Origin: an uncultured Bacillales bacterium
Lineage (GTDB): Bacteria; Bacillota_I; Bacilli_A; RFN20; CAG-826
DNA: 64,000 nt
Assembly (NCBI GenBank): GCA_946414655.1
Contig: CAMKPL010000001.1
Coordinates: forward strand, 47,081-111,080
Reading direction: 5' to 3'
A program made the translations under genes and the position numbers. The notes beneath the pieces are model-generated. The model worked only from the letters and a program-made list of their open reading frames with translations, searched no databases and had not been told where the DNA came from. Numbering within the stretch: position 1 is the first letter of the stretch; every line of letters starts with the position of its first letter. Below, in pieces: positions 2,016 to 64,000 of the stretch.

Positions 2016-2132
2016 TTATTCGTCTTCCTCGACTGGGGTGAGCATTTCGAATGGTGCGCCACAAACTGGGCAAACTTCACCTTCTTCGACTTCAACTTCT
2101 TGACCGCAGATTTGACAAACATACTTTTTCAT
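2016..2132 (-). CDS. 38-aa rubredoxin-like CxxC..CxxC metal-binding miniprotein
   Basis: Missed by the ORF track; MKKYVCQICGQEVEVEEGEVCPVCGAPFEMLTPVEEDE with AGGAG RBS, directly after mrp. Confidence 0.8.
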   Translation of the reverse strand: MKKYVCQICGQEVEVEEGEVCPVCGAPFEMLTPVEEDE

Positions 2133-2144
2133 AGTTGGTCTCCT

Positions 2145-2972: not shown

Positions 2973-3033
2973 ATGAGATAACCTCCGATTTGAGTGCTTC
3001 TATTATCTCATACTTAATAAAATTAAAAAACCA

Positions 3034-3618: not shown

Positions 3619-3634
3619 AAAAAGATCTCCTTAT

Positions 3635-10650: not shown

Positions 10651-10651
10651 A

Positions 10652-16400: not shown

Positions 16401-16402
16401 CG

Positions 16403-17692
16403 TTATTCCTCCTTCACTTTGGACCATAAATTACTCGCGAATTTGCGAGCTTCAATAACTTCATTAATGAGCTTTTTGCTGGTAATTTTGTAATCTTTGA
16501 CACGTTTTGTACCAGCAGTATAAACATCGCTTGGTTTTAAAGCTGGGAATAATCCGTAGAAGAGATGACCTAGTGCATTTGAAGCATCCATTTTTGTAAA
16601 TGGAGTGTACTTCACGCGCATAAAGTCAGCTTCATAACCTTTCTCAAATTTTCCAAGTTTTAAGCCTAAGCGATCTCCGACATATTTATAAGAGTTTTCA
16701 ATCATTTGATGAACATCTCCAAGGCCAATACCTAAAGGAGATTCGCTCTTCAAATGACCAGTATAAAGAACATTGTTATATTCGTTAGCCATATTAGAAC
16801 TTAAGCCGTCGTTTCCAACCATAACTGGAATTCCATAATCTAAATATTTACGGACATTTGGAAGACCAACAGCATTGTTCATATTGGATGTTGTATTAAC
16901 AACCATGTAGCAGCCTCTTTCCTTAATAATTTGAAGTTCTTCATCATTAAGATGAACACCATGAACAATTAAGGAGTTTGGAACAAGTAATCCAAAATCA
17001 TCAAAGCGTTTAATGATTGGCTTTTTGTATTTTTCTTCTGAATCTGATTCATCATCTAGTGCCTCAGCAACGTGAACGTGTAAAGGAACTCCGTTTTGTG
17101 CTTTTGCAACTCTTCTAAGTGTTGCGTTTGATAGTGACATTGAAGCGTGCAATCCAAATAAACCTTCACCAGGATAACGTTTAGCAAAATTTTTGTTTTC
17201 TTTAATACAATCGCTAACATTATAACGATCGCTTGTTTCAAAGCAGAAGATTCCATGCATTTTGAGTGGTCCGACAAAAGCTTTTCTTAAAGACTTCAAA
17301 GAGCCAATAATTTCTCCTGATGCATGGTGGTCAATAACTGATGTTACACCGTTTAAAAGGAATTCTTCACCGGCACAAATTGCGGAATAGTAAGTTTCTT
17401 GATTAACAAGTTTTGCATCAATCTTCCACCACATTTGATCCAAGATTTGCTGGAAATTTTTTGGATTAAACGGTAAAGCAAGACCTCTAGCAAAAATCGA
17501 ATAAATGTGAGCGTGGGCACACACAAATGTAGGAAGAAGTAGGTCGCCTTTATAATCTTCGACTGATTGGTATTCGCCTTTTGGGAATTCGCTCATTGGG
17601 CCACATTTCACGATTTTGTCATCAAAAAGTAGATAACCGCATTCGATGTAGTTTTTGTAGTCATAAATTCGAGCATTAATAATTGCTTTCAT
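16403..17692 (-). CDS. SsnA-like metal-dependent amidohydrolase
   Basis: CAHAHIYS, DHHAS, GLHAS, HVHVAE, VHGVH, GNDG. Confidence 0.85.
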   Translation of the reverse strand: MKAIINARIYDYKNYIECGYLLFDDKIVKCGPMSEFPKGEYQSVEDYKGDLLLPTFVCAHAHIYSIFARGLALPFNPKNFQQILDQMWWKIDAKLVNQETYYSAICAGEEFLLNGVTSVIDHHASGEIIGSLKSLRKAFVGPLKMHGIFCFETSDRYNVSDCIKENKNFAKRYPGEGLFGLHASMSLSNATLRRVAKAQNGVPLHVHVAEALDDESDSEEKYKKPIIKRFDDFGLLVPNSLIVHGVHLNDEELQIIKERGCYMVVNTTSNMNNAVGLPNVRKYLDYGIPVMVGNDGLSSNMANEYNNVLYTGHLKSESPLGIGLGDVHQMIENSYKYVGDRLGLKLGKFEKGYEADFMRVKYTPFTKMDASNALGHLFYGLFPALKPSDVYTAGTKRVKDYKITSKKLINEVIEARKFASNLWSKVKEE

Positions 17693-18999
17693 TATTTAAC
17701 CTCCCCACAATTTAAGTTCTTTCCCTGATGTGGAACAATTTTTCGATTTTTTAACACAAATTGTCCACGAACAAGCACTGTTTCAAATTCACCAGAACCA
17801 AGAATTCCATCATAAATGGAGTAATCACAAGTACCGTGGTTTTCATTTTCAAAATAGTCTTCTTTTTCTAAAAACACCGACAAATCTGCATCCATTCCAA
17901 CTTTGATTTCTCCCTTGGTTGGGAAATCTTGAATTTTTGCAGAATTAAATGACATTTTGTCGATGATTTCATCACCAAATCGTCGATACATTGTTGAGAA
18001 TGAATGCTCAATTCCTCCAACACCGAGAGGGAATCCTTTTAGAGTTGGATAATCTTTGTCTTTCTTCATAAATGAACAATGGTCGGTGCCAATTGTTTCA
18101 ACATCTTTATAGTAGGCGATTAAAAGTTGTCGTTCTCTTTCACTTCTTAGTGGAGGTGCAAACGTAAATAGTTTTCCATTCTCACCTTCTAAAACAGAGT
18201 TATTAAAGATGAAATATTGTGGACAACTCTCAACAAATAAATTCTTATTAAGAATGTCTGGGAATTGTTCTTTAAGTGCTTTTAATGTTTCACCACTTGA
18301 GCAATGAACCATATAGAAGTTTCCGCCAGTTTCACGAACAAGTTTAGCAAGTTTTAGTGCCTCACTTGTTTCACTCATTGATGGGCGAGAAACTGGTAAA
18401 TCTTTATAAGTATAAGAATCGCGAAGATCGATTAAATCATCGTTTTCAATGTGCGCTTCGATAAGAACGTTGTACTTCTTAGAAAGTTGTAATAATTTTT
18501 CGATATCTTTCTCATAAGTACGTCGACCAGTGTCACTATAAGTTGTAAACAACTTAATTGTTCTCATTCCAAGTTTAACAACGGTTTTGACGTATTCTTC
18601 TAAATCGCCATTTGGCATCTTAATGCAAGCGTGCATGTGATAGTCAACAAGTGACTTCTTCGCGAGTTCAAGACGTTCATAAAACGACTTCTCTAAATCT
18701 TTGGCATTACTAGTTGGATCAAGGAAATCAACAATGGTTGTTACACCGCCATAAGCGGCACAAACTGAACCACTATAAAAGTCATCCACCGAAGTTAATC
18801 GCCCACAGTTCAGTTCAAAATGAACATGTGGATCAATTAATCCAGGAAGAACTTTCTTTCCTTTTGCGTCAAGAACTTCTTTAGCTTCGACTTCTTCTGT
18901 TCCAACGTAAGAAATTTTCTCACCTAAAACAGCCACATTGACGTTTTGCCATTTGTGGTCAATCCAAACTAATCCGTTCTTTATTAATAAGTCGTGCAT
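17692..18999 (-). CDS. Dihydropyrimidinase/hydantoinase (HyuA-like) cyclic amidohydrolase
   Basis: PGLIDPHVHF, AAYGGVTT, IKLF, HIEN, VHCS, GTDHCSF. Confidence 0.85.
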   Translation of the reverse strand: MHDLLIKNGLVWIDHKWQNVNVAVLGEKISYVGTEEVEAKEVLDAKGKKVLPGLIDPHVHFELNCGRLTSVDDFYSGSVCAAYGGVTTIVDFLDPTSNAKDLEKSFYERLELAKKSLVDYHMHACIKMPNGDLEEYVKTVVKLGMRTIKLFTTYSDTGRRTYEKDIEKLLQLSKKYNVLIEAHIENDDLIDLRDSYTYKDLPVSRPSMSETSEALKLAKLVRETGGNFYMVHCSSGETLKALKEQFPDILNKNLFVESCPQYFIFNNSVLEGENGKLFTFAPPLRSERERQLLIAYYKDVETIGTDHCSFMKKDKDYPTLKGFPLGVGGIEHSFSTMYRRFGDEIIDKMSFNSAKIQDFPTKGEIKVGMDADLSVFLEKEDYFENENHGTCDYSIYDGILGSGEFETVLVRGQFVLKNRKIVPHQGKNLNCGEVK

Positions 19000-21314
19000 T
19001 ATTTCTTTTCTTTGACCGCCTTAAAGATTCTTTCAGGAGTAATTGGTAAGTGATGGATTCTTACGCCAAAGGCGTTATAGACAGCGTTACATAAAACAGC
19101 TGGTGGAGTATCAATACCAATTTCACCAACAGATTTCGCACCAAATGGTCCTGTTGGTTCATATGAATCAGCAAATTCGGTGACTAATTCACCAACTTCA
19201 GCGCGGGTTGGAATGTGATAGACATCGAAGTTTGTTGTTAATAGTTTTCCTTTGTCGTTATAAATGACTTCTTCAGAAGAGGCCATTCCATAACCTTGGA
19301 TAATTCCACCTTCAACTTGGCCTTTAGCCAGCATTGGGTTAATTGTTGTACCACAGTCAGTTACTGTGACGTACTTAATCATCTTGTATTCGAATGTTTC
19401 AGTATCGAATTCGAATTCACCAAACGCAGCCATAAATGGAGGTGGAGAAACATGTCCATGGAAGGATTCGGTAACAGCGATTTGGCGGGTGTCTTGGTTA
19501 TATAAACGATTGGTTGCTAAATCTTCTAAGGAGAGAGATTTTTCACCAGATGTAAACATCTTTCCGTCAAATTCAACAGTGCCGACTTTCACATTCATGT
19601 ATTCAGCAGCTTCTTTAACAAGTCTTTCTCTCATCTTAGATGCAGCGTTCCATGCGGCATTACCACTAACATAAGTTGTGGAGGATGCATAAGCACCACA
19701 GTCATATGGAGTTAAATCTGTATCAGAAGAATAGATAATGACTTTATCAACAGTGGTTTGAAGTTCTTCAGCAACGATTTGAGCAATCATTGTGTCGGAA
19801 CCTTGGCCAATATCGGTCGCACCAACAGTGACCATGTAAGAACCACCATCATTGAGTTTAATTGTACAAGAACCCATGTCTAAGAATGGAATGCCAGAAC
19901 CTTGCATAGCAATAGCGCAGCCAACTGAACGAACTTTATGTGGTCCGACTTCTTTTCTTGGCCATTTCTTATCCCATTCAATGAGTTCACGACCACGTTT
20001 AATACAATATGGAAGCTTGCAGCTTTCCATAATCATCGCAGTACCTTCTGTACCTTCACCCATAATTTCAAAGATTGGGGAAGTTTCTTTTTCCTTCATT
20101 GAGTTCAGCTCACGAAGTTTAATTGGATCCATACCCATCTTTTCTGCAAGTTCATCTATGATGGATTCAACAGCATAGTTTCCTTGAATAGCACCGTATC
20201 CACGATACGCACCAGCAGAAACGTGGTTGGTATAAACAACGTGGCCACCAAATTTCACAGCCTTAACTTTGTTATATAAAGGAAGAACCTTTGAACCAAC
20301 AATCATAAAGACTGTTAAGGCGTGTTCACCGTAAGCACCAGTATCACTTAAAGCACGGCAATCAATGGCTTGAATAATACCATCCTTTGTTGCGCCGACT
20401 TTGAGAGTAATTTTCATTGGGTGACGTGTGTATGAACATCCAAATACTTCTTCACGAGTGAAGACACACTTACTTGGTTTCTTTGTTCGTAATGTAACTA
20501 AAGCGCAGAACATTTCACCATGGAAAGCTTGTTTACCACCAAATCCACCACCGACACGTGGTTTAACAACACGAATCTTTTCTACAGGAAGACCCAATGT
20601 CTTTGACATAATTCTTCTCATGTGGAATGGGGTTTGGGTTGTTGAATAAACAACTAAACGGTTATGTTCATCTAAGCGAGCATTACATGAGTGCGGTTCA
20701 AGCATCGCGTGAGCTTGGGCTTGAGAATAGAAAGTGTCTTCAACAACATAGTCACATTTCTTTAATTCTTCAGCGACATTACCAACTTCCATCTCATAGG
20801 AGGCAGCTAAATTCTTCTTTGGATCAAAGCCAATTGGGAACATTTCATGAATGCCATCTTCTGGGTGGATGACAGATTTATTTTCATAAGCTTTTTCAAA
20901 GTCGAGAACTGGTTCAAGAACTTCATAATCGACTTTGATTTTCTTCATTGCTTCTAAAGCAACTTCTTCGCTAACTGCAGCAACAGCAGCGACTTCGTCT
21001 CCTACATAACGAGCGTATTCATCAAAGATGAACTTATCATGTGGAGACGGTTCTGGATAACCTTGTCCAGCACGTGTAAAGGCAACATGTGGAACGTTAT
21101 CTTTGGTGAGAATACAAGCGACACCAGGAACTTTTTCCGCTTCACTAACATCGATTGATTTAATACGAGCAAAAGCGTGAGGACTTCTTAGTAGCTTAAT
21201 TACTAAGGAGTTTTGTTGAGCAAGATCATCAGTGTAGAAAGAACGACCTTGCATTAAGCCTTTACCATCAAGACTTGGAGTAATGTTATTAACAACACGG
21301 AAATTCTTTTTCAT
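18999..21314 (-). CDS. XdhD-like molybdopterin-binding subunit (771 aa)
   Basis: GGGFGGKQ, AYRGYG, GATDIGQG, GAYASS, GAKSVGE. Confidence 0.9.
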   Translation of the reverse strand: MKKNFRVVNNITPSLDGKGLMQGRSFYTDDLAQQNSLVIKLLRSPHAFARIKSIDVSEAEKVPGVACILTKDNVPHVAFTRAGQGYPEPSPHDKFIFDEYARYVGDEVAAVAAVSEEVALEAMKKIKVDYEVLEPVLDFEKAYENKSVIHPEDGIHEMFPIGFDPKKNLAASYEMEVGNVAEELKKCDYVVEDTFYSQAQAHAMLEPHSCNARLDEHNRLVVYSTTQTPFHMRRIMSKTLGLPVEKIRVVKPRVGGGFGGKQAFHGEMFCALVTLRTKKPSKCVFTREEVFGCSYTRHPMKITLKVGATKDGIIQAIDCRALSDTGAYGEHALTVFMIVGSKVLPLYNKVKAVKFGGHVVYTNHVSAGAYRGYGAIQGNYAVESIIDELAEKMGMDPIKLRELNSMKEKETSPIFEIMGEGTEGTAMIMESCKLPYCIKRGRELIEWDKKWPRKEVGPHKVRSVGCAIAMQGSGIPFLDMGSCTIKLNDGGSYMVTVGATDIGQGSDTMIAQIVAEELQTTVDKVIIYSSDTDLTPYDCGAYASSTTYVSGNAAWNAASKMRERLVKEAAEYMNVKVGTVEFDGKMFTSGEKSLSLEDLATNRLYNQDTRQIAVTESFHGHVSPPPFMAAFGEFEFDTETFEYKMIKYVTVTDCGTTINPMLAKGQVEGGIIQGYGMASSEEVIYNDKGKLLTTNFDVYHIPTRAEVGELVTEFADSYEPTGPFGAKSVGEIGIDTPPAVLCNAVYNAFGVRIHHLPITPERIFKAVKEKK

Positions 21315-21766
21315 TATTTCTTACCTCCAAGATATTTTTCGACAGCGTTACCTTGGCTTTGTAAACCAGTACAACGACATAAGTTTCCAACTAAGTAATC
21401 ATTGATTTCTTGACGAGTTGGATGTGGGTTTTCTTCTTTTAAGGCGTGAACAACTAGGGCGAGAGCTGCTGAGCAATATCCACATTGGTCGGCGCCTTCT
21501 TTAGCAAAATATTCGGAAAGTTGAGCAGCTTCTTCTTGGATGGATTCAACAGTCATAACTTTCTTTCCTTCAATTGAAGCTGTTAGAACAGAACAAGATA
21601 GAGTTAGTTTTCCATCAACGAGAACTGTACAAGCTCCGCAAGCGGAGGCGTTACAACCTTTCTTAACTGATTTGACTCCGTTAGCGCGAAGTGAATCAAG
21701 AAGGTATTCACCTGGTTTAACATAGTAGACAACATCTAAACCATTTAAATTGAATTTGACTTCCAT
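21314..21766 (-). CDS. 2x[2Fe-2S] subunit of the second molybdo-hydroxylase
   Basis: GCNASACGAC, QCGYC, GNLCRCTG. Confidence 0.92.
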   Translation of the reverse strand: MEVKFNLNGLDVVYYVKPGEYLLDSLRANGVKSVKKGCNASACGACTVLVDGKLTLSCSVLTASIEGKKVMTVESIQEEAAQLSEYFAKEGADQCGYCSAALALVVHALKEENPHPTRQEINDYLVGNLCRCTGLQSQGNAVEKYLGGKK

Positions 21767-22543
21767 TTATTTAACCTCCTCTAAAGCGCGTTTTAAGTAA
21801 ACACGAGCAAGATGGCTTCGGTATTCACCTTTGGCGCTCATTGAGTCGCCAAGTTTTAACTCTTGCATAGCAAGCTCAACGGCTTGATCAACATCCTTGC
21901 CACCTTCATTTAAATATTTCATCGCTCCTTCGCATAAACATGCAACTAATGGACGAGAACCAACCACAATTCGGTAATCTTTGTCTTTAGTGACACAGAC
22001 ATTCAGAATTGGGTAATCTAGAGCAGTCATTTTAACTTTCTTAAAGAAAGATTTGGCAGAACTCTTATAAATACGAACTTCAGTTAAAATTCCATCAGCA
22101 AATCCTGGTTTCTTCACGTATTCATCAAGTGATATGACTTCTTCTGGATAGAAAACTAAATCAACTTTAAATCCAAGAAGAGCAGTAATCACATCAGAGA
22201 AACCATATTTTCCGTAAACGGAACCTCCGATTGTGGCGCTATTGCGGAAAGCTGGACCCATGATTTGATGAACCGCATCAGAGAGAACTCCGCCACCAAT
22301 CTTTTTAATAATTGGAGAGGTTTCAAAAGCTCTTTGAGTAACCAACGCGCCAACTGAAACATAATCTTTTTCTTCTTTAATTTGGTCTAAACCTAGACGA
22401 GAAAGATCGATTAATTTGTCGACGTCGCCATTTCCTTTCTTTAACCATAAACCACCACCAAGAATTTTATTTTTTGGTGATGATTTTTTGAGGGAGTATG
22501 CTTCTTCCAAAGAAGCTGCACGAACATATTCGTTTACTTTCAT
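21767..22543 (-). CDS. YgfM-like FAD-binding subunit
   Basis: ILGGGLWL, FRNSATIGGSV, SAKGEYR. Confidence 0.85.
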   Translation of the reverse strand: MKVNEYVRAASLEEAYSLKKSSPKNKILGGGLWLKKGNGDVDKLIDLSRLGLDQIKEEKDYVSVGALVTQRAFETSPIIKKIGGGVLSDAVHQIMGPAFRNSATIGGSVYGKYGFSDVITALLGFKVDLVFYPEEVISLDEYVKKPGFADGILTEVRIYKSSAKSFFKKVKMTALDYPILNVCVTKDKDYRIVVGSRPLVACLCEGAMKYLNEGGKDVDQAVELAMQELKLGDSMSAKGEYRSHLARVYLKRALEEVK

Positions 22544-41376: not shown

Positions 41377-41461
41377 TGGTGGAGATAACAGGACTTGAAC
41401 CTGCACGGGTCGCCCCACTAGATCCTAAGTCTAGCGCGTCTGCCAGTTTCGCCATATCTCC
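41377..41461 (-). tRNA. tRNA-Leu (TAG)
   Basis: Acceptor GGAGATA/TATCTCC, anticodon loop CTTAGGA, long variable arm, GGTTCAAGT, CCA encoded. Confidence 0.95.
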
Positions 41462-41537
41462 AAGTGAGCGATATTATAACACACTTAATTACTTTTTGAA
41501 TAAAAAGAAAAACGGCTCTTTCGAACCGTTATTTCGG

Positions 41538-41610
41538 TGCCTTCTATCGGACTTGAACCAACAACCTACCGCTTACAAGGCGGTTGCTCTGCCAATTGAG
41601 CTAAGAAGGC
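41538..41610 (-). tRNA. tRNA-Thr (TGT)
   Basis: GCCTTCT/AGAAGGC, loop CTTGTAA; followed by ACCG rather than ACCA. Confidence 0.93.
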
Positions 41611-41614
41611 AATG

Positions 41615-41690
41615 TGGTGGGCGCTACTGGTCTCGAACCAGCGACCTCTTCCGTGTGAAGGAAACGCTCTCCCAGCTGAGCTAAGTGCCC
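41615..41690 (-). tRNA. tRNA-Val (CAC)
   Basis: Anticodon arm TTTCC-TTCACAC-GGAAG, GGTTCGAG, CCA; one A.C mismatch in the acceptor stem. Confidence 0.9.
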
Positions 41691-41775
41691 ATTTTGGGAG
41701 TATTTAACGACATTGTCGTTAAGGGTCTCCCTAATAAAATTGCCCGTTGAAGTTTGGGCAACCTTGAATGTAGTT

Positions 41776-41852
<77 letters not shown>

Positions 41853-53362: not shown

Positions 53363-56300
53363 TTATTTTACTTTTCTTCGTCGAATAAAGAAGTATCCGC
53401 CTACAGCTGATAGACCAATTATTGAACCGATCACAATAAGAATTGTTCCATTATTCCAAGTTACAGTTTCAAAAACATTTAAGACTGGGTTCTTTGATAT
53501 TACATAGTCATCTGCAGAAGGACTAATTGTTTTGCCTAAGTGAGCAGCCCACGCTAATAAACGTTCTCTCGCTGTTGAAATGACATAGTCATCGCTTGTC
53601 ATAAATGTCACACGACCGTCTTTTGTCATATTTTCAAAATATCCTTTAACTGTAGCAAATTTTGTTGTGCATTGATTATTTGTGTCTTCATACATAATGT
53701 AATTTGCAACAGCTTCAGGAGTATCGCTTCCATAAAATCCTAGAACAATCGAAGAAATATTGCTGTATGAGCTTGATGTAGATTCGTAAGAGATTTTTAC
53801 AAAGTAATAGTTATTAGTATTGAAATTTGCGCTTGATGTTAATGTCCACGATGACCCGTTTGTACTCACATAAATTTTTCCATCGTTTCTAGCACCACTC
53901 TTCTGAGTAAATGATGCCGAGGTTAACTTCTTGCTAAAGGCACTTGTGTTTTGTATTGAACCAATACCTTTTCCAAAAGAAAGGTAATATGTTGAGTTCG
54001 TATTGTAGGCATATGCATTTGTAGTAACGGTAAAAGCTATTCCTCCAATAGTTACATTAGTATTGCTTGCTGTTCCTGAACTTTTAGAAAGATCAGACGA
54101 ACCAAAGTCGGAACTTGAAATTGTTGTGTTTGTATTTGATGGGGCAGCATAAGCGTTTCTTGAGACATTTACATTAAACAAATAATTCTGCCCAAAATAA
54201 CTTATTGATAATTGTTTTTGTGTAGAGGATCCACCGCTATTAGCATCGCTATATTTAAATTGATAACCATCGTTGTTAAATGTGTAATCAGTTACAACTT
54301 CTTGCTTTCCACTAATATGCGTTACGGTAACAGTTAAATCGCTCTTGGAGATAGTTTCTCCTGGATGATAACTTTTGCTCGACGAAACTGAGACGTTTGA
54401 GATAGTGTCTTCGACAATTGTCAGCGTTAAAGTTGTTGTTAAAGGAGTTGCGGATGTACTTAAAGAACCGGTATAGGTAATTGTTAATTGGTTAGAACCA
54501 GCAGAAGAAGAATTAAATCCCGTAATCGAATAATTACTAGAGCTTAATACAGCATCTGGATATTTGCTTGAATCAGTAAATGAAGCAGTAACAGATATCG
54601 AACTTTCATTAAGTTCATCACCAATGTAAATTGTTCCTCCAGAATAAGAAGCACTTAAAGTATCAACTATTTTGTCAGATAAATCTTGAACCTCGTATGT
54701 AACGGAAACCTGATTACACCAGAATGAATTAGCTGTTGATGTTAATGTAATAACTATGTTACCTTCACACTCAAATGAGCCGGAAAACAAGGTGTAAGAT
54801 TTATAAGAGCTTGTAAGATCACTACTTGAGTATGTTGTTTTAGAAAGAGAAATGGAACTACCAGCATTTGTAATAGATACTGTACCAGAACCACTTGAAC
54901 TATTTTTATGAAGTTGGGCTGTAATAGATGTAATAACACAGTCCGAGTACCCTGAAATAGTCCATAACTCGCGCTTGCCACTAGTCATTTGGTCACTACT
55001 GTTTGAACCATTATTATTGTATGAAACAGAACTTCCCTCGGGGTAATCTCCGGCAATTGTGGCAGATGTTTTTGTTGAAACACTAAATGTTGTTGTTCCA
55101 GTTATTGGAGCTGTAATAGTTACAGAGCACGATGCTTGATAGCCGCCATCAACAGTTGTTGCTGTGATTATTGCGCTACCAGCAGAAACCCCAGTTACAA
55201 CGCCATTATTGACGGTTGCTACGCCAGTATTACTACTTGACCAGTTTAAACTCTTATTTGTCGCGTTATTTGGAGAAACAGTTGCGGTTAATGTTTCACT
55301 ACCTCCGACAGTAATCGATGTTGAATTTTTGTTAAGAGTTACGCCGGTTACATGAACAGTTGAGTCTGTTACTGTTATAGCACATGTTCCATTCTTTGTT
55401 CCATCAGCTTGAGAAGTTGCTGTAATAGTTGCATTACCTGTTGCTTTAGCAGTTACGACACCAGTAGATGATACTGTTGCAATACTTGTATTGCTACTGG
55501 ACCAAGTGACTGCTTGAGAAGGATTGTTAGTTCCATGAACGGTTGCACTTAAAGTTCCAGTTTTAGTTCCATTCAGGTCTAAACTTAATGATGACGGTGA
55601 AATACTAACAGAGGAGACGGTTGGAGATGCGGCTGCTTTTGTAACAGTTACATCAATACCTGCATATACCGAATCATCAATAGTAGATGTAATATAAACA
55701 AAATCTTCTCCCTCTCCAATTGCAGTAATCTTTCCAGATGAGCTTACTGAAACAACATTATTCGTTCCGCTATCAGTTGAAAATGTTACAGTTTTATCAA
55801 AAGTTCCAACGCCGTTAACTGTCCAATCCAAATCCAAAGTATCACCAACTTCCAGCTCTAATTCGTCATTAATTACCTCAGGGTTATTAACAACAATATT
55901 TGTTGGCCCGACAGACTCAACACCCAAAAACTTATCAATATTTAATCGACCGTTTCCTGCCCAAGCAGGACTACCGGAAATAGCATCACAAGAAGCATAT
56001 AAGGCGCTTTCAATCTCAGCTGGCGTTGCGCTTGGATTTTGCTGCTTATAAAGAGCGATTGCGGCTGTAACGATTGGAGCAGAGAAAGAAGTCCCACTAT
56101 TTTTTCTATAAGCAGAGCTTGTCACTTTGTCTGCAACATACACTGTTCCAGGTGCAACAAGATCTATTCCATATGTGTTCGAGTAACCAGCTTTTATATA
56201 AGTAGATGATTCAGCAAGTGAACCAACAGAAATTACATGATCATTGTTGGCTGGATATGATGGTTCGCTGGTGTTGTAGTTTCCGGCGGCTGCAACAAGC

Positions 56301-57040
56301 GTAATTCCAGCGTTATAACAGCTATTAATATAGTTTGTTAATTGGGTTGAACAATTTTTTGAAGCAGACATTGTTGATCCGTTGTATGTCACATCGTGTT
56401 CATAGGCCTGGAAGGACATATTAATGACATCTATTCCTTCGGAAATACAATAGCTTAGCGCACTATTAATTGCGGTCCATTCATAACCGTTATTTGTGTT
56501 TGTTACTTTGTAAATATATAACTCAACATTTGGAGCAATACCGGCGCAACCCAAAGCATTAATTTGGCTAGCAATTACAGAAGCCACATTTGTGCCATGA
56601 CCTAATGAATCAACTATTTTAGATTGATAACCCGAACTAAACTGATAATAAAGCCAACCACCAGATGTATTATCAATGGTTCTAGAATTGCCTTGAATAA
56701 TTTGGTTACCATTAGTGTCAGCAAAATCTTCATGCGTGTAGTTAAGACCGCTATCAATAACTGCAACTTTTACGGAATCACCGCGATATTCTTGAGGTGC
56801 ATTATTAAACCCCATTGTAGAGAATGTGTAACTGTTTTGTGTCGAATAATTAGGCTCGTTTGTAATGTCGGTTGAATAATCAGCCGCATAAAACATTGGA
56901 CCTTCCTCACCCGTATCTTCGCAAATAAAAACTCCTCCATCATTATCTGGTTTTGAACTTGATTCAGAAGCAGAACCCATTAAAAGTCCACTTGATAGAA
57001 GCAGAGCAGATATAGCTAAGAGGATCTTATTCTTTTTCAT
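53363..57040 (-). CDS. Cell-surface S8 (subtilisin-like) serine protease with Ig-like repeats and C-terminal TM anchor
   Basis: Signal peptide MKKNK..., triad motifs VAVIDSG / GHGT / SGTSFSAP, Big_2-like repeats (W.SSNT..ATV), terminal TM plus RRRKVK. Confidence 0.9.
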   Translation of the reverse strand: MKKNKILLAISALLLSSGLLMGSASESSSKPDNDGGVFICEDTGEEGPMFYAADYSTDITNEPNYSTQNSYTFSTMGFNNAPQEYRGDSVKVAVIDSGLNYTHEDFADTNGNQIIQGNSRTIDNTSGGWLYYQFSSGYQSKIVDSLGHGTNVASVIASQINALGCAGIAPNVELYIYKVTNTNNGYEWTAINSALSYCISEGIDVINMSFQAYEHDVTYNGSTMSASKNCSTQLTNYINSCYNAGITLVAAAGNYNTSEPSYPANNDHVISVGSLAESSTYIKAGYSNTYGIDLVAPGTVYVADKVTSSAYRKNSGTSFSAPIVTAAIALYKQQNPSATPAEIESALYASCDAISGSPAWAGNGRLNIDKFLGVESVGPTNIVVNNPEVINDELELEVGDTLDLDWTVNGVGTFDKTVTFSTDSGTNNVVSVSSSGKITAIGEGEDFVYITSTIDDSVYAGIDVTVTKAAASPTVSSVSISPSSLSLDLNGTKTGTLSATVHGTNNPSQAVTWSSSNTSIATVSSTGVVTAKATGNATITATSQADGTKNGTCAITVTDSTVHVTGVTLNKNSTSITVGGSETLTATVSPNNATNKSLNWSSSNTGVATVNNGVVTGVSAGSAIITATTVDGGYQASCSVTITAPITGTTTFSVSTKTSATIAGDYPEGSSVSYNNNGSNSSDQMTSGKRELWTISGYSDCVITSITAQLHKNSSSGSGTVSITNAGSSISLSKTTYSSSDLTSSYKSYTLFSGSFECEGNIVITLTSTANSFWCNQVSVTYEVQDLSDKIVDTLSASYSGGTIYIGDELNESSISVTASFTDSSKYPDAVLSSSNYSITGFNSSSAGSNQLTITYTGSLSTSATPLTTTLTLTIVEDTISNVSVSSSKSYHPGETISKSDLTVTVTHISGKQEVVTDYTFNNDGYQFKYSDANSGGSSTQKQLSISYFGQNYLFNVNVSRNAYAAPSNTNTTISSSDFGSSDLSKSSGTASNTNVTIGGIAFTVTTNAYAYNTNSTYYLSFGKGIGSIQNTSAFSKKLTSASFTQKSGARNDGKIYVSTNGSSWTLTSSANFNTNNYYFVKISYESTSSSYSNISSIVLGFYGSDTPEAVANYIMYEDTNNQCTTKFATVKGYFENMTKDGRVTFMTSDDYVISTARERLLAWAAHLGKTISPSADDYVISKNPVLNVFETVTWNNGTILIVIGSIIGLSAVGGYFFIRRRKVK

Positions 57041-57182
57041 GGTTAGCCGCATCAAACTTTATGCTTTTAATATTCTACACACATACACATAAAATTCCCA
57101 CATCGAAAAATTTTGGGATAAAATCCACAAAATGTTTCGTTGGAGTTTTGCTATAAAATCACCTGCAAATCCAAAATAAATT

Positions 57183-57230: not shown

Positions 57231-58478
57231 TTAAAGTTTAATGTCTTCCACCTTACATTTACGTCCTGGTTTAATTGTAATCTTACCCGGAGTAATAGCA
57301 CCAACTGGACAGACATGTCCGCAAAGGAGACAACCGACGCACTTATCGGTATTGCAGCTTGGTTCACGTTTTTCAGCGTTCCATTCAATGGCTTGGTGAC
57401 CACCATCATAACAGGAAATATAGCAACGTCCACACTTGATACATTTATCAAGATCAATGTTTGGACGGACAATGTAGTCACGGTTAAGGTTTTCTGCCGG
57501 AATGATGTTCTTATTGGCTTTGCCAACAAGTTCATGAAGTGAATCAACACCTTGTTCAACCATGTAGTGCTCAAGACCGTTTTTCATATCTTCCACAACA
57601 CGATAACCATATTGCATAATGGCTGTTGTAACTTGGAGAGTTGTTGCACCGACTAAGATAAACTCAGCAGCGTCTTCCCACGTTTCAATTCCACCAATAC
57701 CAGAGATTTCGAGGTTTTCAAGGCCTTCTGCTTGTCTCATTTGTTGAATGAAACGAAGGGCAACTGGTTTAACGGCTTTACCGGAGTAACCGGAAATAGC
57801 GGATTTGCCATCGACAATTGGTAAACCAACTTTCTTATCAAGATCGATATTACAAATTGATTTGATTGTGTTAATGGCAGCAATACCATCAGCTCCACCT
57901 TCTAAACAGGCTTTGGCTACTGGAACCATATCGGTGATGTTTGGTGTCATTTTAGCCATCATTGGAAGTTTACTTCCACGTTTGACGGCTTGGCAGTATT
58001 TCTTACAAAGTTCGGCGTTTGTACCAACATCACTACCCATGGCATGAGAAGTCATTTGTGGACAGGATAAGTTCATTTCGATCATATCTGCACCAGCTTC
58101 TTCAACCATGCGAGCTAGGTCTTCCCAAGTCTTTTCATCATTACCCATAATAGAGGCAATTAAGACTTGATTTGGGAATTCTTTTTTAAGTTTACGTAAA
58201 TCGCGTAAGTTTTCTTCTAAAGAGTGTTCAGCGATTTGTTCCATGTTCTTGAAGCCAACAAATGGAGTAGATTCCTTGTTGAGCTTATCGAAACGTGGAG
58301 AAACTTCATCAATAAAGTATGATTTTGGGCCGATTGTCTTAAAGACAACACCACCCCAACCAACTTCATATGCTTTCTTACACATGTCGTAGCAGTTTCC
58401 GACTGGCGAAGAGGATAAGCAGAATGGGTTTGGGAATTTCACACCTAAGAAGGTGACTGATAAATCTTTATGTACCAT
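57231..58478 (-). CDS. preA: NAD-dependent dihydropyrimidine dehydrogenase subunit PreA
   Basis: [23 protein letters not shown] (catalytic Cys), KMTPN, SGYSG.AVKP, two 4Fe-4S motifs. Confidence 0.95.
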
Positions 58479-58479
58479 T

Positions 58480-59712
58480 TTATTTACCTCCTAACGCAGC
58501 ATGGACATACAAGGCAACTTCTTTACCTGTACGAACACCGCCAACAACTGTTTTATCATATGCACTATGTGCAATATCGCCACAAACAAAGACTTTTGGA
58601 TCTTTGGTGTAGTATGGCTTTCCTTCATTGACTTCACCTTTAACGAGTTCAATTCCGAGTCCTTTAACTTCTGGGTATTGTCCAACAGCAAGAACGACTA
58701 AATCTGCTTCAACTTTAATTTCAGCTTTTATTTCGCGGTGAGCAAATGTGACAACATTTCCTTCAACCTTGCTTGGGACATAACCGTCAACGATGGTAAC
58801 ACCCATTTTTTGAGCGCCTTCAAGTTCTTTCTTGCTGGCTTTGAATTCTTTAAATTGTTCGTAGACAACATCAGTCACGTGTTCAACACCTAAAAGTTTA
58901 AGTGTAGTAACAACGTCCATAGCAACGTCACCACCACCAACGACTAAGACGTTGGCTGGAACTTTAACAGCTCCGCCTTTTGCTTTGACTTCTCTTAAAA
59001 AATCAACAGCAGAAATTACATATTTGTTGTTTTCGAATGCTGGAAGCATCTTACCATAGGAATATCCTGGGGCAAGAACAACAGCGTCATGTTTCTTTTT
59101 AAGATCTTCGACAGAAACCTTTTTACCAACTTCAACTCCAGTATGGAATTTCACTCCGAGATCTTCAATGCGTTTAATTTCGACATCAACGACTCTGTTT
59201 GGTAAACGATATTCTGGGATGAGTCTAAGCATACCGCCTAAGACTTTTTCTTTTTCGTAAACATGGACTTCATATCCAAGTTTATTGAAGCTTACAGCAG
59301 CTTGAAGAGCAGCTGGACCAGAGCCGACAAGAGCAACAGATTTACCATTTTTCTTACCGGCTTCTAAGATTTTCATCTTATTAGCTTCTTCGAAGTCTGT
59401 CACATAACGTTGAATACGACCAATGTCAATTGGTTTATCGATTCCGCTACGTGAGCAACCTTTTTGGCAATATTTTTCGGTTGGACAAACGCGAGCACAA
59501 ATTGAACCTAATGCGTTGTTTTCACGAATTGTTTCAGCCGCACCTTTGAAGTTACGGAAGCGAACTGAACGAATGAATTTGTCCGGATTAGTGCCAGCCG
59601 GACATGCTTTCGAACATGGTGCATCATGACAAAGAAGGCAGCGAGCTGCTTCTTCGCAAACGTTTAATGGAGAAAATCCAGGTTCGAAATCTTTTTTGTA
59701 ATTTGAATCCAT
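58480..59712 (-). CDS. preT: Dihydropyrimidine dehydrogenase subunit PreT
   Basis: [39 protein letters not shown]; adjacent to preA. Confidence 0.93.
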
Positions 59713-59775
59713 ATGAAAATTCCTTTCGCTTATATTTTAACAAATATGATTCTGTTTTAAATTTAGTTTTTAAAC

Positions 59776-59806
59776 AAAAAAGAAATCCGATTATTTCGGA
59801 TTCCTT
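59776..59806 (-). terminator. Terminator after fic
   Basis: AATCCGA-N5-TCGGATT with T-run on the minus strand. Confidence 0.7.
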
Positions 59807-59826
59807 AAATCGCCTGCAAATCTCCA

Positions 59827-60549
59827 TTATTTTCGCCAATCCTCTGGTTTTTTAATCGTTTCCAATTTTTTTATTGTGTGGTGTGTATATGAGTATTTAG
59901 ATACTTCGTTTCCATCAATTGTTTCGTATTTTTGTGTGTTGAAATTTTTTCTTGTACACAAGTCTGTGACAAATCCGTTTAAAAATTCATAACGAGAATT
60001 ATTGTACAAAGAAGACAAAACCAATGCATTTCTAAAATATTTCCCATACTTAGAAATTGTTTCGAAATTTATAGTTAAATTGTTCTGTTTTGCAAGGAAA
60101 TAAAGAAACACAGAAGTTGTCCTAGAATTCCCCTCTCTAAATGGATGAATATGCCAAAACTCTGAAATAAAGTAGCAAATTTTATCAACCAATTCCTTAG
60201 CGCTTAACGTTTTAAAATTGTACTTTTTATATTCCCCATCCAACTCCGTGAGTGCTGTTTTAATATAACTTGCAAAAACATAGTCAATTGAAGAACCACC
60301 CAAAATTAGTTCTGACTTATATATATCGATCGATCTCGGTTTTCCGGCCCATTCGAAAATGCCTGAAAATAAGGTTTTATGTATTAACAGAACATCAAAG
60401 ATTGAATCGATATGGAAATTGCTTCGAACCAAGTTATTAAAACCAAGCAAAAAATAATCTGCTTCAATATGCTCCAATTCATCTTCGTCTTGAATGTCGA
60501 AGCAATTTTTTAAAACTTTAGTTCCTGGATAAACATATGGATCAATCAT
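59827..60549 (-). CDS. Fic domain protein (FicT-like toxin)
   Basis: DPYVYPGTKVLKN, IHKTLF..IFEWAG..R, HPFREGNSRT. Confidence 0.9.
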   Translation of the reverse strand: MIDPYVYPGTKVLKNCFDIQDEDELEHIEADYFLLGFNNLVRSNFHIDSIFDVLLIHKTLFSGIFEWAGKPRSIDIYKSELILGGSSIDYVFASYIKTALTELDGEYKKYNFKTLSAKELVDKICYFISEFWHIHPFREGNSRTTSVFLYFLAKQNNLTINFETISKYGKYFRNALVLSSLYNNSRYEFLNGFVTDLCTRKNFNTQKYETIDGNEVSKYSYTHHTIKKLETIKKPEDWRK

Positions 60550-60864
60550 CTATTTGTGCAACCTCCCAATTGCAAATTGAGCTGTTTCATAATCGATCTG
60601 ACCCGTCGCATACAATCGTACGATCCTTTTAGCCTCTTCAGACGGGGCAACACCATCAATTTGAGCGAGTGCCGAACCCATTTCGATTTCTTTTTCAACG
60701 TCATTAGATAAAGTTAATTCAAACGGCAGACCCCTTTTATTAACTGATGCATTTAAAAATAAGCTTATTGCTTGACTCGTAGTTAATCCAAGGGCGGCAA
60801 AAATTTTGTCTGCGCTCGCTTTAACCTCTGGGGTTACTCTAGTATGAACGGTCATTGTTTTCAT
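60550..60864 (-). CDS. RelB/DinJ-type RHH antitoxin fused to a VbhA-like C-terminal domain
   Basis: RVTPEVKASA..IFAALGLTTSQAISLFL...GLPFEL plus SALAQIDGVAPSEEA...YATGQIDYE. Confidence 0.8.
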   Translation of the reverse strand: MKTMTVHTRVTPEVKASADKIFAALGLTTSQAISLFLNASVNKRGLPFELTLSNDVEKEIEMGSALAQIDGVAPSEEAKRIVRLYATGQIDYETAQFAIGRLHK

Positions 60865-60882
60865 ATTTCTTTCCTCGAAAAT

Positions 60883-60911
60883 AGTGTATCACAATTGCGA
60901 CACAAGCGCAA
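60883..60911 (-). promoter_or_regulatory. Promoter of the antitoxin-fic operon
   Basis: TTGCGC-17 nt-TACACT (with TG extension) and an imperfect palindrome around CAATTG in the spacer. Confidence 0.55.
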
Positions 60912-60920
60912 GAGATGAGA

Positions 60921-60950
60921 AAAATAAAAGGAGACTTTTCAAAGTCTCCT
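60921..60950 (-). terminator. Terminator after lemA
   Basis: AGGAGACTT-N4-AAGTCTCCT with T-run on the minus strand. Confidence 0.8.
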
Positions 60951-60971
60951 AGTAGTGTTATCAAATTTTCC

Positions 60972-61625
60972 TTAGAAAAACACGCCGCGAGCTTGTTGCT
61001 TAACTTCTTTAGAAACAGAGAATGGAATACGAGTTGTATATCCACGTTTTGCGGCAATGATTTGTTTGAATGGCCACTCAAAGATGGCTTTATTCCATTC
61101 AGCGACAACATCATTATAATGTTCGCGTGCAGCAGTGATTTCACGTTGAGTATAGCTATTTTGTTGCATTGCATCAGCAAGTTCTTGGTGAGCCTTTAAA
61201 TCTGGATAGTTTTCAAATGCAACATTAATCTTACGTGAAACTTCTTCGATTGCCTTATTTTGTTCGGTGAATGATTCAGCACCACCAGCACGTAATTTAG
61301 CAATTTCTGTAAAGGTTGATTTATCTAAATCAATTCCTTTTTCAACAAGCTTAGCAGCATTTTGAAGAATAACGACACGTTGTTCCATGTAGTTATCAAC
61401 TTGAGAAGCAGCTTGTTGGATCTTTTGTTGAAGTTGGCTTAGTTTTTTACCAGCATTGACTCTGGCAAGTAGCACAAATGGAATTGGGATAATAAATAAG
61501 CACAAGACCACTTGGAAAATTGTTGAGCCAACACCAACTTTTACTGGGATTTGTTTTTCAATGACATTAACGTCACGTCCAGCCTCGTTAACTGGACCAG
61601 TCATTTCGTCTAATTCGTTTGCCAT
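60972..61625 (-). CDS. lemA: LemA family protein
   Basis: TM, then ENYPDLKA, REHYNDVV..WN..I..WP...IA. Confidence 0.88.
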   Translation of the reverse strand: MANELDEMTGPVNEAGRDVNVIEKQIPVKVGVGSTIFQVVLCLFIIPIPFVLLARVNAGKKLSQLQQKIQQAASQVDNYMEQRVVILQNAAKLVEKGIDLDKSTFTEIAKLRAGGAESFTEQNKAIEEVSRKINVAFENYPDLKAHQELADAMQQNSYTQREITAAREHYNDVVAEWNKAIFEWPFKQIIAAKRGYTTRIPFSVSKEVKQQARGVFF

Positions 61626-61628
61626 AGG

Positions 61629-63320
61629 TTAATTTTCCTCCTTCGCCATTTGCGATTTTAGACTTTTTATATCTACATTCAACCCTGATTGTAAAGCAAT
61701 CAAGCCTCTCCTGTAAATAGTATTTTCATTGCCAAGTGAGCGGAAAGCAATTTCGTTTCCACCAACATTGGCTGTTTGAATGTCGCCTTCTCCGGTCACG
61801 CCAATATATTCCACCCAAGGAACCGGAACGTTATGAAGACGACCATCTCCGCCCATTACTGGAACGAGTTCAACATGGTTTTCTCCGCGGAATGATTCGG
61901 CGACAACATGCACTTGGTCGGCACCACCTTTTTCACCATTATAGAATGTGCGATAAATGATATCAGTTATCGAGGATTTATCGGCAAATTCTTTTGGATT
62001 AAAGAGATTGACCAACATCTCGTGTTCAAAGGGAGTTATCTGGGATTTGACGGTGTTTTTATAAATATATTCTTTTGGTTTATATTGTTGATAAAGTGGA
62101 ATAGAAAGAAGTGGGGCAAAGTCAAAATAGATAGCTTTGAAATAGTAATCGTTAAAGTCTAAGAAGAACTCACGAACCTTATCATAATCAAAGCCTCTAA
62201 AATCAGCGATGTCCATGAAAATGCTTCTTCCTCTCATATGCAGAGATTCAATAATATTGATGTATTTATCTTTTTTGAAATAGAAATCATCACCGAAGCC
62301 CTGGTCAGAAAAGAGAAGATCAATCATCGCTTTTTGAGCAAGAGGAGTAAACAGTAAACGATATTCAACTTCATTGTTTCTGTTAAGACCACCAAAGGAT
62401 AATTCAAATAAAGAATTTCCAAGAGGAGTATAGGTTCCTCCTTTAGTCATTGCTTTTTCGGCTAGCTTACTAAGATTTCCTTCGTTCTTACGAACATATT
62501 TTTCGCGTTGTTTCTCATCCATGCCATTCATTTCGCTTGGTCCACGAGAAAACTCAAGATGAGGTGCGGCTTCGTTGCCATAAACAAGATATGTTTCTTC
62601 TGAATATTCTGGCTTTGGTTTAGTAACGGTTGCTCTTAAAGTTTGGGTTTCAACAACAGTATAGCTTCCATCTTTTGTGTAAACGCGGCGTGTATATGTA
62701 ATTACCTTTGTTCCAACATAGGTATGAGGAACCATCTTCATCACTTTGTCTTTAAAGAAAACGAATGGATTACCAAGAATACTTCCTGTTTGGAGATTTA
62801 AAACCGAGCGATTTTCCATTGATGAACCCCACATGCCATACTTATTAACAAGCATTTCATATTTGGTTCGATCAAAGTTTCGATCCATCTGAATTAAAGG
62901 AACGCTTTGTTGGAACAGTTTGGCTGGCATATCATCATTAAATAATGCATTAAGGGGAGCCATTTGTTCCCATGCTTCTGAACGTAATTTATTGATTTCT
63001 ACATCGATTTTTGCCAGCATTTCTTGGATATTTTTCTTTTTTGGTCGATAAACAAAAATAAATAAAAAGATTCCAACAATGACTAAACAAAGAATGCCGA
63101 AGAGAAAAGCAAGCCATGCGAGATTTCCAAGTTTTTTCTGAAGCTTTTCTTTCTCGGCTTGTTTAGCATAAAGTCTCTTGCAGGTAGCTTGGTTAGCACT
63201 AATATCAATGCCAGATTTCTTTACGAGTTCATCAAAAAACTTTTCAACACGTTCATGATGTTGATCTTTTAATTGAAGTCGATAAAGTTTAGACGGCTCA
63301 AGTAAATCTGTTTGATTCAT
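61629..63320 (-). CDS. Conserved hypothetical membrane protein coupled to lemA
   Basis: 563-aa ORF, coiled coil-TM-large soluble domain, ends 3 nt before lemA. Confidence 0.7.
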   Translation of the reverse strand: MNQTDLLEPSKLYRLQLKDQHHERVEKFFDELVKKSGIDISANQATCKRLYAKQAEKEKLQKKLGNLAWLAFLFGILCLVIVGIFLFIFVYRPKKKNIQEMLAKIDVEINKLRSEAWEQMAPLNALFNDDMPAKLFQQSVPLIQMDRNFDRTKYEMLVNKYGMWGSSMENRSVLNLQTGSILGNPFVFFKDKVMKMVPHTYVGTKVITYTRRVYTKDGSYTVVETQTLRATVTKPKPEYSEETYLVYGNEAAPHLEFSRGPSEMNGMDEKQREKYVRKNEGNLSKLAEKAMTKGGTYTPLGNSLFELSFGGLNRNNEVEYRLLFTPLAQKAMIDLLFSDQGFGDDFYFKKDKYINIIESLHMRGRSIFMDIADFRGFDYDKVREFFLDFNDYYFKAIYFDFAPLLSIPLYQQYKPKEYIYKNTVKSQITPFEHEMLVNLFNPKEFADKSSITDIIYRTFYNGEKGGADQVHVVAESFRGENHVELVPVMGGDGRLHNVPVPWVEYIGVTGEGDIQTANVGGNEIAFRSLGNENTIYRRGLIALQSGLNVDIKSLKSQMAKEEN

Positions 63321-63365
63321 ACTTAAATGTTATACCTATTATAATTAAATATACATAGAAAAGAT

Positions 63366-63397
63366 AAAAATAAAAGAGAGCCACAATGTGACTCTCT
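63366..63397 (-). terminator. Terminator after the isomerase-like gene
   Basis: AGAGAG-C-CAC-AAT-GTG-A-CTCTCT with T-run on the minus strand. Confidence 0.7.
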
Positions 63398-63416
63398 ATA
63401 AGTAGATAAATAATTA

Positions 63417-64000
63417 TTAGAAGAAACGTCCAATAATATCTTTTGAAGCGGCACAAGTATCTTCCATGTCGCCGAAGGAAATAATTTCTCCAGCGTAGAA
63501 GGTGTTCTTTGTTCCTTGAAGTGCTTCAAGTTTATCATACCATCCGTCCGCATAATCTTTTGAGGAGACGTGTGGGCAATAATAAACTTCTTGAGCATAA
63601 AGTTTTTCTTTAATTGGGAATCCGACTTTCTTCATGTCTTCATCCATTGTTTTCATTACAACATCATAATCAACATCTTTTGAACCGGTGTGATTTGCTA
63701 AAGCGTAAACTGTCGCTGGACAATCGCGATCAAGGCATTGCCATCTGTTGTAATAAACCATCGCATGTCCAAGTCTTTCCGGAACCATATTTTCAACAAG
63801 ATAACCGGAAATATTCGGTGATTTTCCTTCTTCGAAAGTAGCAATGTAATCACAATATCTTTCGTGAATAATCTTGGAGAAGAGTTCTTTTTCTTCCTTG
63901 GTTGCATCAGCGTATTGAGCAAAGTAATCAAGTGGTGTTGTGACGATTAACTTATCAAATTCTTCTTTTTTAAGTTTTCCGTCTTTTCCTTTAATTGTGA
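63417..64000 (-). CDS. FAD-dependent enzyme homologous to C. acnes polyunsaturated fatty acid (linoleate) isomerase PAI; C-terminal ~193 aa, start beyond the window
   Basis: The frame stays open from 63998: ..DKLIVTTPLDYF..FSKIIHERY..PNISGYLVENMVPERLGHAMVYYNRW..YYCPHVSSKDYADGWYDKLEALQGTKNTFYAGEIISFG..SKDIIGRFF; matches my recollection of the PAI C-terminus. Confidence 0.8.
   Translation of the reverse strand, partial: TIKGKDGKLKKEEFDKLIVTTPLDYFAQYADATKEEKELFSKIIHERYCDYIATFEEGKSPNISGYLVENMVPERLGHAMVYYNRWQCLDRDCPATVYALANHTGSKDVDYDVVMKTMDEDMKKVGFPIKEKLYAQEVYYCPHVSSKDYADGWYDKLEALQGTKNTFYAGEIISFGDMEDTCAASKDIIGRFF

Follow-up and report, generated by a model that had tools for sequence, protein, structure and literature searches.

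Does the uncultured Bacillales bacterium behind contig CAMKPL010000001.1 encode a linoleate isomerase, and which conjugated product would such an enzyme release? The question is raised by a gene that is cut by the edge of the 64,000-nucleotide (nt) stretch analysed here (the window), and whose protein fragment resembles PAI, the FAD-dependent polyunsaturated-fatty-acid isomerase of Cutibacterium (Propionibacterium) acnes. To our knowledge, PAI is the only cloned enzyme known to make the trans-10,cis-12 form of conjugated linoleic acid (hereafter t10,c12-CLA). When formed in the rumen, this isomer and trans-10 18:1 cause diet-induced milk-fat depression and alter the fat quality of meat and milk. 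Our results place the gene in the PAI family with near certainty.

The truncated gene and its relationship to PAI

On the minus strand, translation from 63998 to 63417 gave 193 sense codons (63998-63420) with no internal stop, followed by a TAA at 63419-63417; the two remaining bases (63999-64000) belong to the codon preceding the fragment. The other two frames are full of stops. The open reading frame (ORF) runs past the window edge at 64000, so the N-terminal half lies outside, as the original prediction had said, and the ORF listing gives just an internal-ATG piece of 123 amino acids (aa) at 63417..63788. The peptides quoted in that prediction (FSKIIHERY, PNISGYLVENMVPERLGHAMVYYNRW and YYCPHVSS...IIGRFF) were all found in the minus-strand translation, and the PAI strings that it had given agree with the PDB 2b9w sequence in the HMMER alignment. 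Beyond the stop codon, a hairpin with a 10-pair stem (5 GC pairs) at 63397-63375 starts 20 nt past the TAA, and the terminator scan counted 1 site as compared to 0.1 expected in shuffled sequence. Since the hairpin and a T-run follow the stop, the PAI-family gene would be the last of its transcription unit.

A phmmer search with the fragment among 177,635 PDB sequences returned a single match, 2b9w_A (E 1.1e-48, query 12-193 to PAI 245-423), which is the C. acnes CLA-forming isomerase deposited under the title 'putative aminooxidase'. This bears out the claim that the fragment is homologous to, and colinear with, the PAI C-terminus. BLASTP of the fragment against P0161, the PAI cluster, showed 89/198 identities (45%, E 5e-54). 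Pfam and NCBIfam scans of the 193-aa fragment gave no match; neither holds a model for the PAI-specific C-terminal part, and automated annotation is therefore silent on the fragment.

A protein search with the fragment yielded just partial proteins of at most 302 aa, and the full-length gene was taken from genome contigs. One of these (L001), from the rumen metagenome-assembled genome (MAG) of the Bacillales/Caryophanales bacterium UBA4278, is colinear with window positions 57420-64000 at 94.3% DNA identity, and its protein matched the window in tblastn with 98.96% identity over residues 294-486. Judged by these alignments, the window organism is the same species as UBA4278 or a sister species, an uncultured member of the rumen Bacilli. 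The L001 gene has 486 codons (L001 5122-6582); the window fragment corresponds to residues 294-486 of its product and to PAI residues ~229-423, and its first 293 codons fall outside the window. Against the PDB, the full-length protein matched 2b9w with an E of 3e-101 (residues 5-486 to PAI 6-423), while the other matches had E values of 7.6e-5 or above and nearly all covered the Rossmann motif alone. Identity between L001 and PAI is 45.7% over aligned positions (BLASTP, 191/482 alignment columns identical, E 1e-107). Pfam recognised the L001 protein at superfamily level only, as Amino_oxidase (PF01593; 8.5e-11, residues 16-320) and NAD_binding_8.

This relationship was further supported by an AlphaFold2 model that was made for P0041, which is 92% identical to L001, from a 39-sequence family alignment and reached a mean pLDDT (per-residue confidence) of 92.5 and a pTM (predicted template-modelling score) of 0.90. 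Foldseek placed 2b9w at the top (E 9.6e-49, root-mean-square deviation 3.1), with a template-modelling (TM) score of 0.94 normalised to PAI and 0.82 to the query, followed by CpaO at 0.76 and by amine oxidases and protoporphyrinogen oxidase at ~0.65 with 12-14% identity. The model thus predicts a PAI fold of three domains, with domains 2 and 3 among them, for the protein type of the window. PAI (PDB 2b9w, 2b9x, 2b9y, 2ba9, 2bab and 2bac) is colinear with this type over its whole length, and the predicted fold is common to both. As of 2007, no relative exceeding 26% identity to PAI was known, and its domains 2 and 3 had no structural relatives when they were solved (PMC2885616); reviews treat PAI as a separate group (PMC13365329).

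Subfamilies, conserved residues and gene neighbourhoods

A search with the PAI sequence, taken as query from the L001-to-2b9w alignment, found 904 clusters at E <= 1e-10, which separate into three groups: PAI proper (424 aa), a ~451-aa group (hereafter group 2) and the 486-aa group of the window (group 1). Group 2 carries the MAG labels Solobacterium, Bulleidia, Erysipelotrichales, Lachnospiraceae, Oscillospiraceae, Eggerthellaceae and Coriobacteriales, and its members (e.g. P0186, P0219 and P0263) are ~52% identical both to PAI and to L001; P0165, a protein of 425 aa that is 63% identical to PAI, clusters with it. When the fragment was searched by phmmer against 1.84 billion 50%-identity representatives, 16 clusters were found at E <= 1e-30 and 215 at E <= 1e-10, and as many as 502 sequences fall into a single cluster at 90%. 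The family occupies little of sequence space but is well populated in gut and rumen data. Its relatives are named 'FAD-dependent oxidoreductase', 'aminooxidase' (some at NCBI), 'protoporphyrinogen oxidase' (some at JGI) or 'hypothetical'; none of the source labels looked up reads 'isomerase'. The cluster look-ups contained no isolate names and thus pointed to no cultured carrier.

Scanning the GTDB set with one genome per species gave 322 loci encoding relatives. The best 80 of these (73-99% identity) all come from ruminant-gut MAGs, in line with the earlier description of a gut or rumen-type anaerobe. Their hosts are cattle, goat, sheep, buffalo, roe deer and reindeer (fore-stomachs), and the MAGs are loosely labelled Bacilli, Bacillales, Erysipelotrichaceae or Clostridia. 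The gene is intact and encodes 483-490 aa, at 73-100% identity, in nearly all of the 80 species-level genomes, the exceptions being copies at contig ends and one locus (L056). Such preservation points to purifying selection on the PAI-homologue gene. The homologue in L056 (5122-6582) is disrupted into pieces of 404 aa and 76 aa, either as a pseudogene or through an assembly error. In the MAG RGIG4904, two contigs (L012 and L016) carry a PAI homologue with identical context and scores, which may be a real duplication or a redundant assembly.

In an alignment of 236 family members, with 119 sequences of group 1 and 116 of group 2, 113 positions are identical to PAI and at least 95% conserved in both uncharacterised subfamilies. 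Among them are G13, G15 and G18 of the GxGxxG motif, E37, R88, F168, F193, W199, W201 and the A399-G400-E401 segment. The GxGxxG motif and the fatty-acid-binding arginine and phenylalanines were the features that the original prediction had singled out for inspection. The motif is present in the full-length L001 gene, where IIGAGPAG (residues 10-17, outside the window) aligns with PAI 11-18. The R88 position is an arginine in 117/119 group-1 and 116/116 group-2 sequences (R102 in L001), the F168 position is a phenylalanine in 117/119 and 116/116 (F223), and the F193 position in 119/119 and 116/116 (F248). We take R88 to be the carboxylate anchor of PAI, F193 the gate of its channel and F168 an aromatic residue on the flavin side. 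Within the window fragment, the C-terminal flavin-binding segment reads TFYAGEI; its A399-G400-E401 part, like G13, G15, G18 and E37, is invariant in the family.

Relative to PAI, the 486-aa type has inserts of 4+4, 7, 12, 33 and 5 residues, nearly all of which lie towards the N-terminus, in the first half of the protein; the 7-aa insert follows PAI residue 83, the 12-aa insert residue 109 and the 33-aa insert residue 134. The longest forms an ordered beta-hairpin in the AlphaFold2 model, with strands at 162-167 and 185-189. Group 2, which has the 113 conserved positions in common with the window's type, carries an analogous insert of 22 aa as compared to 33 aa and lacks several of the others. 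At 14 sites the 486-aa type has fixed substitutions where PAI and group 2 agree, and two of these, F371C and Q323C, lie in the window fragment.

The neighbourhood of the 486-aa type was analysed by clustering the proteins encoded within five genes of the PAI homologue in 78 loci. HypB, an iron-sulphur (Fe-S) flavoprotein of ~950 aa or HypA was found within this distance in 28 of them, L001 included, and HypB directly adjoins the PAI homologue in 21; about 50 loci have none of the three. Just beyond the window's position 64000, L001 (470-6582) shows six same-strand genes with gaps of at most 27 bp and the PAI homologue last: HypB, a 969-aa Fe-S flavoprotein (1144-4053), HypA, two small membrane proteins and the PAI homologue. 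The small membrane proteins (128 and 96 aa) were rejected as parts of the system, being seen just in L001, L002 and L051. Five other loci (L034, L035, L038, L042 and L054) have the order HypB1, PAI homologue, HypB2, Fe-S flavoprotein of 952-968 aa, HypA on one strand with gaps of ~3-25 bp (3883-9933 in L034), and an operon-like run of HypB, PAI homologue, second HypB, flavoprotein and HypA is also seen in L015 and L028. The two HypB copies of the run are 50% identical, and the flavoprotein has about 952-974 aa. The placement of the HypB, HypA and flavoprotein genes varies (upstream, downstream or divergent) while the association persists. Genes for nickel metallochaperones were unexpected around a homologue of a fatty-acid isomerase. 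Other recurrent neighbours (alpha/beta hydrolase, PlsC-like acyltransferase, TetR, NUDIX, SHMT and ABC ATPases), each in at most 12 loci, were rejected as incidental, judged by sequence and not by family models.

The Fe-S flavoprotein consists of a GltD/NfnB/PreT-like NAD(P)H module (~390-800) and a C-terminal 2x[4Fe-4S] motif. Its N-terminal 390 residues matched nothing in Pfam or the PDB except for a ferredoxin-like motif at 320-345. Eight residues in this part (C219, C221, C232, C240, H278, C293, C295 and C300) are invariant among 19 sequences down to 47% identity. With HypA and HypB encoded next to it, this Cys-rich N-terminal part is a possible novel metal site.

The association recurs outside the 486-aa type. 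In L083, a 425-aa homologue (63% identical to PAI; P0165-type) is followed by a CrtI-family flavoprotein, a PaaE/BenC-like ferredoxin-NAD(P)H reductase and TetR, and then by a 913-aa orthologue of the Fe-S flavoprotein (11870-14611; 46% identity over 932 aa), HypA and HypB, neighbours that it has in common with the window's type. A six-gene module was found in four independent group-2 loci (L081 4589-11908, L083 4260-11012, L086 4350-8892 and L088 6546-13094). One strand carries an acyl-ACP (acyl carrier protein) thioesterase, an ACP-like protein and a fatty-acid-AMP-type ligase; the other carries the PAI homologue, the CrtI-family flavoprotein (~512 aa) and the PaaE/BenC-like reductase (~391 aa). 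From this gene content, group-2 PAI homologues appear to sit in a lipid-handling neighbourhood. DegV and a 4HBT thioesterase are also encoded near the module in L081. Beside the 486-aa type the module was not found, apart from stray cases. PAI itself is a stand-alone gene in an actinobacterial host, whereas the window's type belongs to a Bacilli-type rumen MAG and is linked to HypB, HypA and the Fe-S flavoprotein.

A search of open-access papers and preprints for an isomerase-reductase or biohydrogenation gene cluster gave nothing relevant, an absence that is weak evidence. To that extent the subfamilies and their operon partners appear to be undescribed in the literature, and the gene context of the PAI homologue would be the new part of the finding.

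Proposed activity and its alternatives

We propose that the fragment gene is the last gene of an operon and encodes a soluble PAI-family enzyme that binds FAD and probably works as PAI does, as a double-bond isomerase of free fatty acids. That the protein is a fatty-acid double-bond isomerase we regard as likely. That its main product from linoleate would be t10,c12-CLA is a tentative and somewhat doubtful proposal, and the default guess because PAI makes this isomer. We infer the substrate, the isomerisation chemistry and which isomer is produced. A free C18 fatty acid would enter a hydrophobic channel, where its carboxylate would be held at the entrance by the conserved arginine (R88 in PAI, R102 in L001) and its cis,cis-1,4-diene would lie over the flavin. 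The flavin would remove and then return a hydride, converting the methylene-interrupted diene to a conjugated one with no net redox change, and linoleate would become a conjugated linoleic acid. More speculatively, the isomerase may feed, or work with, the ~950-aa Fe-S flavoprotein of NAD(P)H type encoded alongside it and HypA/HypB, in which case isomerase and flavoprotein could form an isomerise-then-reduce module for biohydrogenation or detoxification. As far as gene order goes, the repeated linkage to an NAD(P)H-type Fe-S flavoprotein, and in group 2 to a CrtI-family enzyme and its reductase as well, suggests a match to the conjugation-then-reduction steps of ruminal biohydrogenation.

Several points weigh against this assignment. 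In the open-access literature searched, PAI alone among the family members has a published activity. Identity to PAI is just ~46%, and the ~62 inserted residues fall in the N-terminal, substrate-binding half, where they could change the substrate or the regiochemistry; given these inserts, the fixed substitutions and the redox partners, another regiochemistry or a reductive role is conceivable. For R88, F168 and F193, the alignment shows conservation and not function. Full-length properties, those of the N-terminal 293 residues among them, were read from L001 (94% DNA identity) and not from the window. None of the redox, Hyp or lipid partners is near PAI in the C. acnes locus, where it stands alone; in the gut and rumen subfamilies partners are conserved, a hint of a role that differs from that of PAI or is additional to it. 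Lastly, the window holds no other lipid genes.

Possibly, the protein is an isomerase of the PAI family with another specificity, making for example c9,t11-CLA, or acting on C18:3, on C20-22 polyunsaturated fatty acids, on fatty acids with hydroxy or oxo groups, or on an acyl chain bound to ACP or CoA. Formation of c9,t11-CLA is the long-sought 'linoleate isomerase' activity of the rumen. The distinct subfamily with its own inserts and 14 fixed substitutions is in line with such a shift, as is the clustering of group-2 relatives with an AMP-ligase, an ACP-like protein and an acyl-ACP thioesterase. However, the arginine at the R88 position is conserved, which favours a free acid as in PAI if it serves as the carboxylate anchor, and nothing points to any one alternative isomer. 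Overall we consider another specificity unlikely.

The redox partners bring in a different reading, in which the protein binds the substrate as the flavoprotein component of an enzyme that reduces double bonds of fatty acids. Electrons would pass from NAD(P)H through the Fe-S flavoprotein to the FAD, and a double bond would be saturated (e.g. turning CLA into 18:1, or acting directly on linoleate). PAI chemistry passes via a reduced-flavin intermediate, which is compatible with such a role, and the operon link to the GltD/NfnB/PreT-like NAD(P)H Fe-S flavoprotein, seen in 21-28 of the 78 loci and again in another subfamily, points the same way; group-2 homologues also precede a CrtI-family flavoprotein and a ferredoxin-NAD(P)H reductase. 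On the other hand, about 50 loci lack such a partner within five genes, PAI works without one, and the 113 PAI-identical positions argue for the same chemistry. Furthermore, the catalytic site could be the partner's own Cys-rich N-terminal domain. We regard the reductase role as quite unlikely.

A generic flavin amine oxidase or protoporphyrinogen oxidase, with a likeness to PAI that reflects a shared FAD fold, is highly improbable and was rejected: the Pfam Amino_oxidase match and the names given to some relatives speak for it, but the window fragment is the non-Rossmann C-terminal part and still matches PAI alone, PDB amine oxidases reach just E >= 1.8e-3 over the Rossmann motif, and the TM score is 0.94 to PAI as compared to ~0.65. 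The original prediction had itself raised generic amine-oxidase similarity as a way in which it could fail; on L001 the gap between PAI (E 3e-101) and the next PDB match (7.6e-5) shows that this does not hold. Identity with further proteins that go by the name 'linoleate isomerase', the MCRA/oleate-hydratase-type LAI of lactobacilli and BBI of Bifidobacterium breve, was ruled out as the sequences are unrelated. They have just nominal CLA formation from linoleate in common with the window's type and, in the case of the hydratases, FAD as cofactor, and no fatty-acid hydratase chain was among the 30 PDB matches (E <= 0.01) of the full-length protein.

The rest of the window and the rumen trans-10 pathway

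The features of the window are collected in Table 1. The downstream neighbours of the PAI-family gene are non-lipid genes (the 563-aa membrane protein, LemA, RelB-Fic, PreT/PreA-like and S8 subtilase genes). No second PAI-family copy was found in the window, nor any HypA, HypB, CrtI-like protein, AMP-ligase, ACP or thioesterase; the sole match to the partner proteins is the similarity of the PreT-like protein to the GltD module of the flavoprotein. The pair of the 563-aa protein and LemA is kept in both L001 and L002, whereas the RelB-Fic pair is present in L001 and missing at the same place in L002. The long same-strand cluster includes two molybdopterin subunits of the xanthine-dehydrogenase family (13204-15303 and 18999-21314), and also two amidohydrolases, two PLP (PALP) enzymes, an M20 peptidase and a DHO_dh+2x4Fe-4S protein. 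Besides the four transfer RNA (tRNA) genes, the Rfam scan of the window found no family at gathering score.

Table 1. Coordinates of the PAI-family gene fragment and other features of the window
Feature	Position	Strand	Basis
3' end of PAI-family gene (FAD-dependent polyunsaturated-fatty-acid isomerase homologue)	63417..64000	minus	translation, phmmer, BLASTP, tblastn
Intrinsic-terminator-like hairpin AGAGAGTCAC-ATT-GTGGCTCTCT, then TTTATTTTTA (T-run)	63365..63397	minus	terminator scan
563-aa protein, one predicted membrane segment, no Pfam family, directly upstream of LemA-family gene	60972-63320	minus	
RelB-like antitoxin (104 aa), then Fic/DOC-domain protein (240 aa); likely toxin-antitoxin pair	59827-60864	minus	
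PreA-like (DHO_dh + 4Fe-4S dicluster, 415 aa) and PreT-like (Fer4_20 + Pyr_redox_2, 410 aa) pair, dihydropyrimidine-dehydrogenase type	57231-59712	minus	
1230-aa S8 subtilase with Big_2 and Big_3 immunoglobulin-like repeats, probably a cell-surface protease	53363-57055	minus	
Four tRNA genes: Leu-tag, Thr-tgt, Val-cac, Ile-gat	41377-41852	minus	
Long same-strand cluster, resembles anaerobic purine/urate-type degradation locus	8060-22543	minus	

The original prediction had suggested that the lineage may be an overlooked producer of t10,c12-CLA. Part of this was already in print, since a 2023 study in Front Vet Sci found PAI-like genes by BLASTP (>=40% identity) in 7 MAGs as well as a catalogue of rumen genes (PMC10019597). 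These MAGs, classified as Lachnospiraceae, Oscillospiraceae or 'unclassified', were proposed as agents of the trans-10 pathway, and one of them correlated with t10,c12-CLA in milk (PMC10019597). That study is without sequence analysis, residues, subfamilies, gene context or biochemistry, and neither the 486-aa Bacilli-type subfamily nor its operon is described there (PMC10019597); the word 'overlooked' fits in part only. The bare finding of PAI-like genes in the rumen is hence not new, and the gene at the window edge adds a new member, still uncharacterised, to the PAI family.

Of 28 cultured rumen species tested, C. acnes alone made trans-10 intermediates, and it was judged unlikely to be the sole or predominant trans-10 agent in vivo (PMC7339423). 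In reviews up to August 2026 C. acnes is the sole proven producer, with enzymes and hosts unresolved (PMC7339423, PMC11770317, PMC13464031), and a 2026 review describes the hosts and enzymes of biohydrogenation as "poorly resolved" (PMC13464031).

The gene context raises the value of this lead beyond that of the original prediction, and the recurrent operon partners suggest where the missing reductase may lie. In its widest form, the gene would encode the isomerase of an undescribed biohydrogenation operon in uncultured rumen Bacilli and Clostridia, in which dietary linoleate or linolenate would be conjugated, the co-transcribed flavoprotein would reduce the diene, and the two HypB copies and HypA may mature the flavoprotein with nickel. 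We consider this extension somewhat unlikely. If true, both the trans-10 (or trans-11) isomerase and the reductase of abundant rumen bacteria that are uncultured could for the first time be approached through their genes, and a novel class of nickel-dependent enzymes may be at hand. The PAI-family gene offers a concrete candidate for cloning, and as a marker it could serve to test the trans-10 shift in metagenomes and metatranscriptomes; should the enzyme make a different isomer, this would be equally informative on how the family sets regiochemistry.

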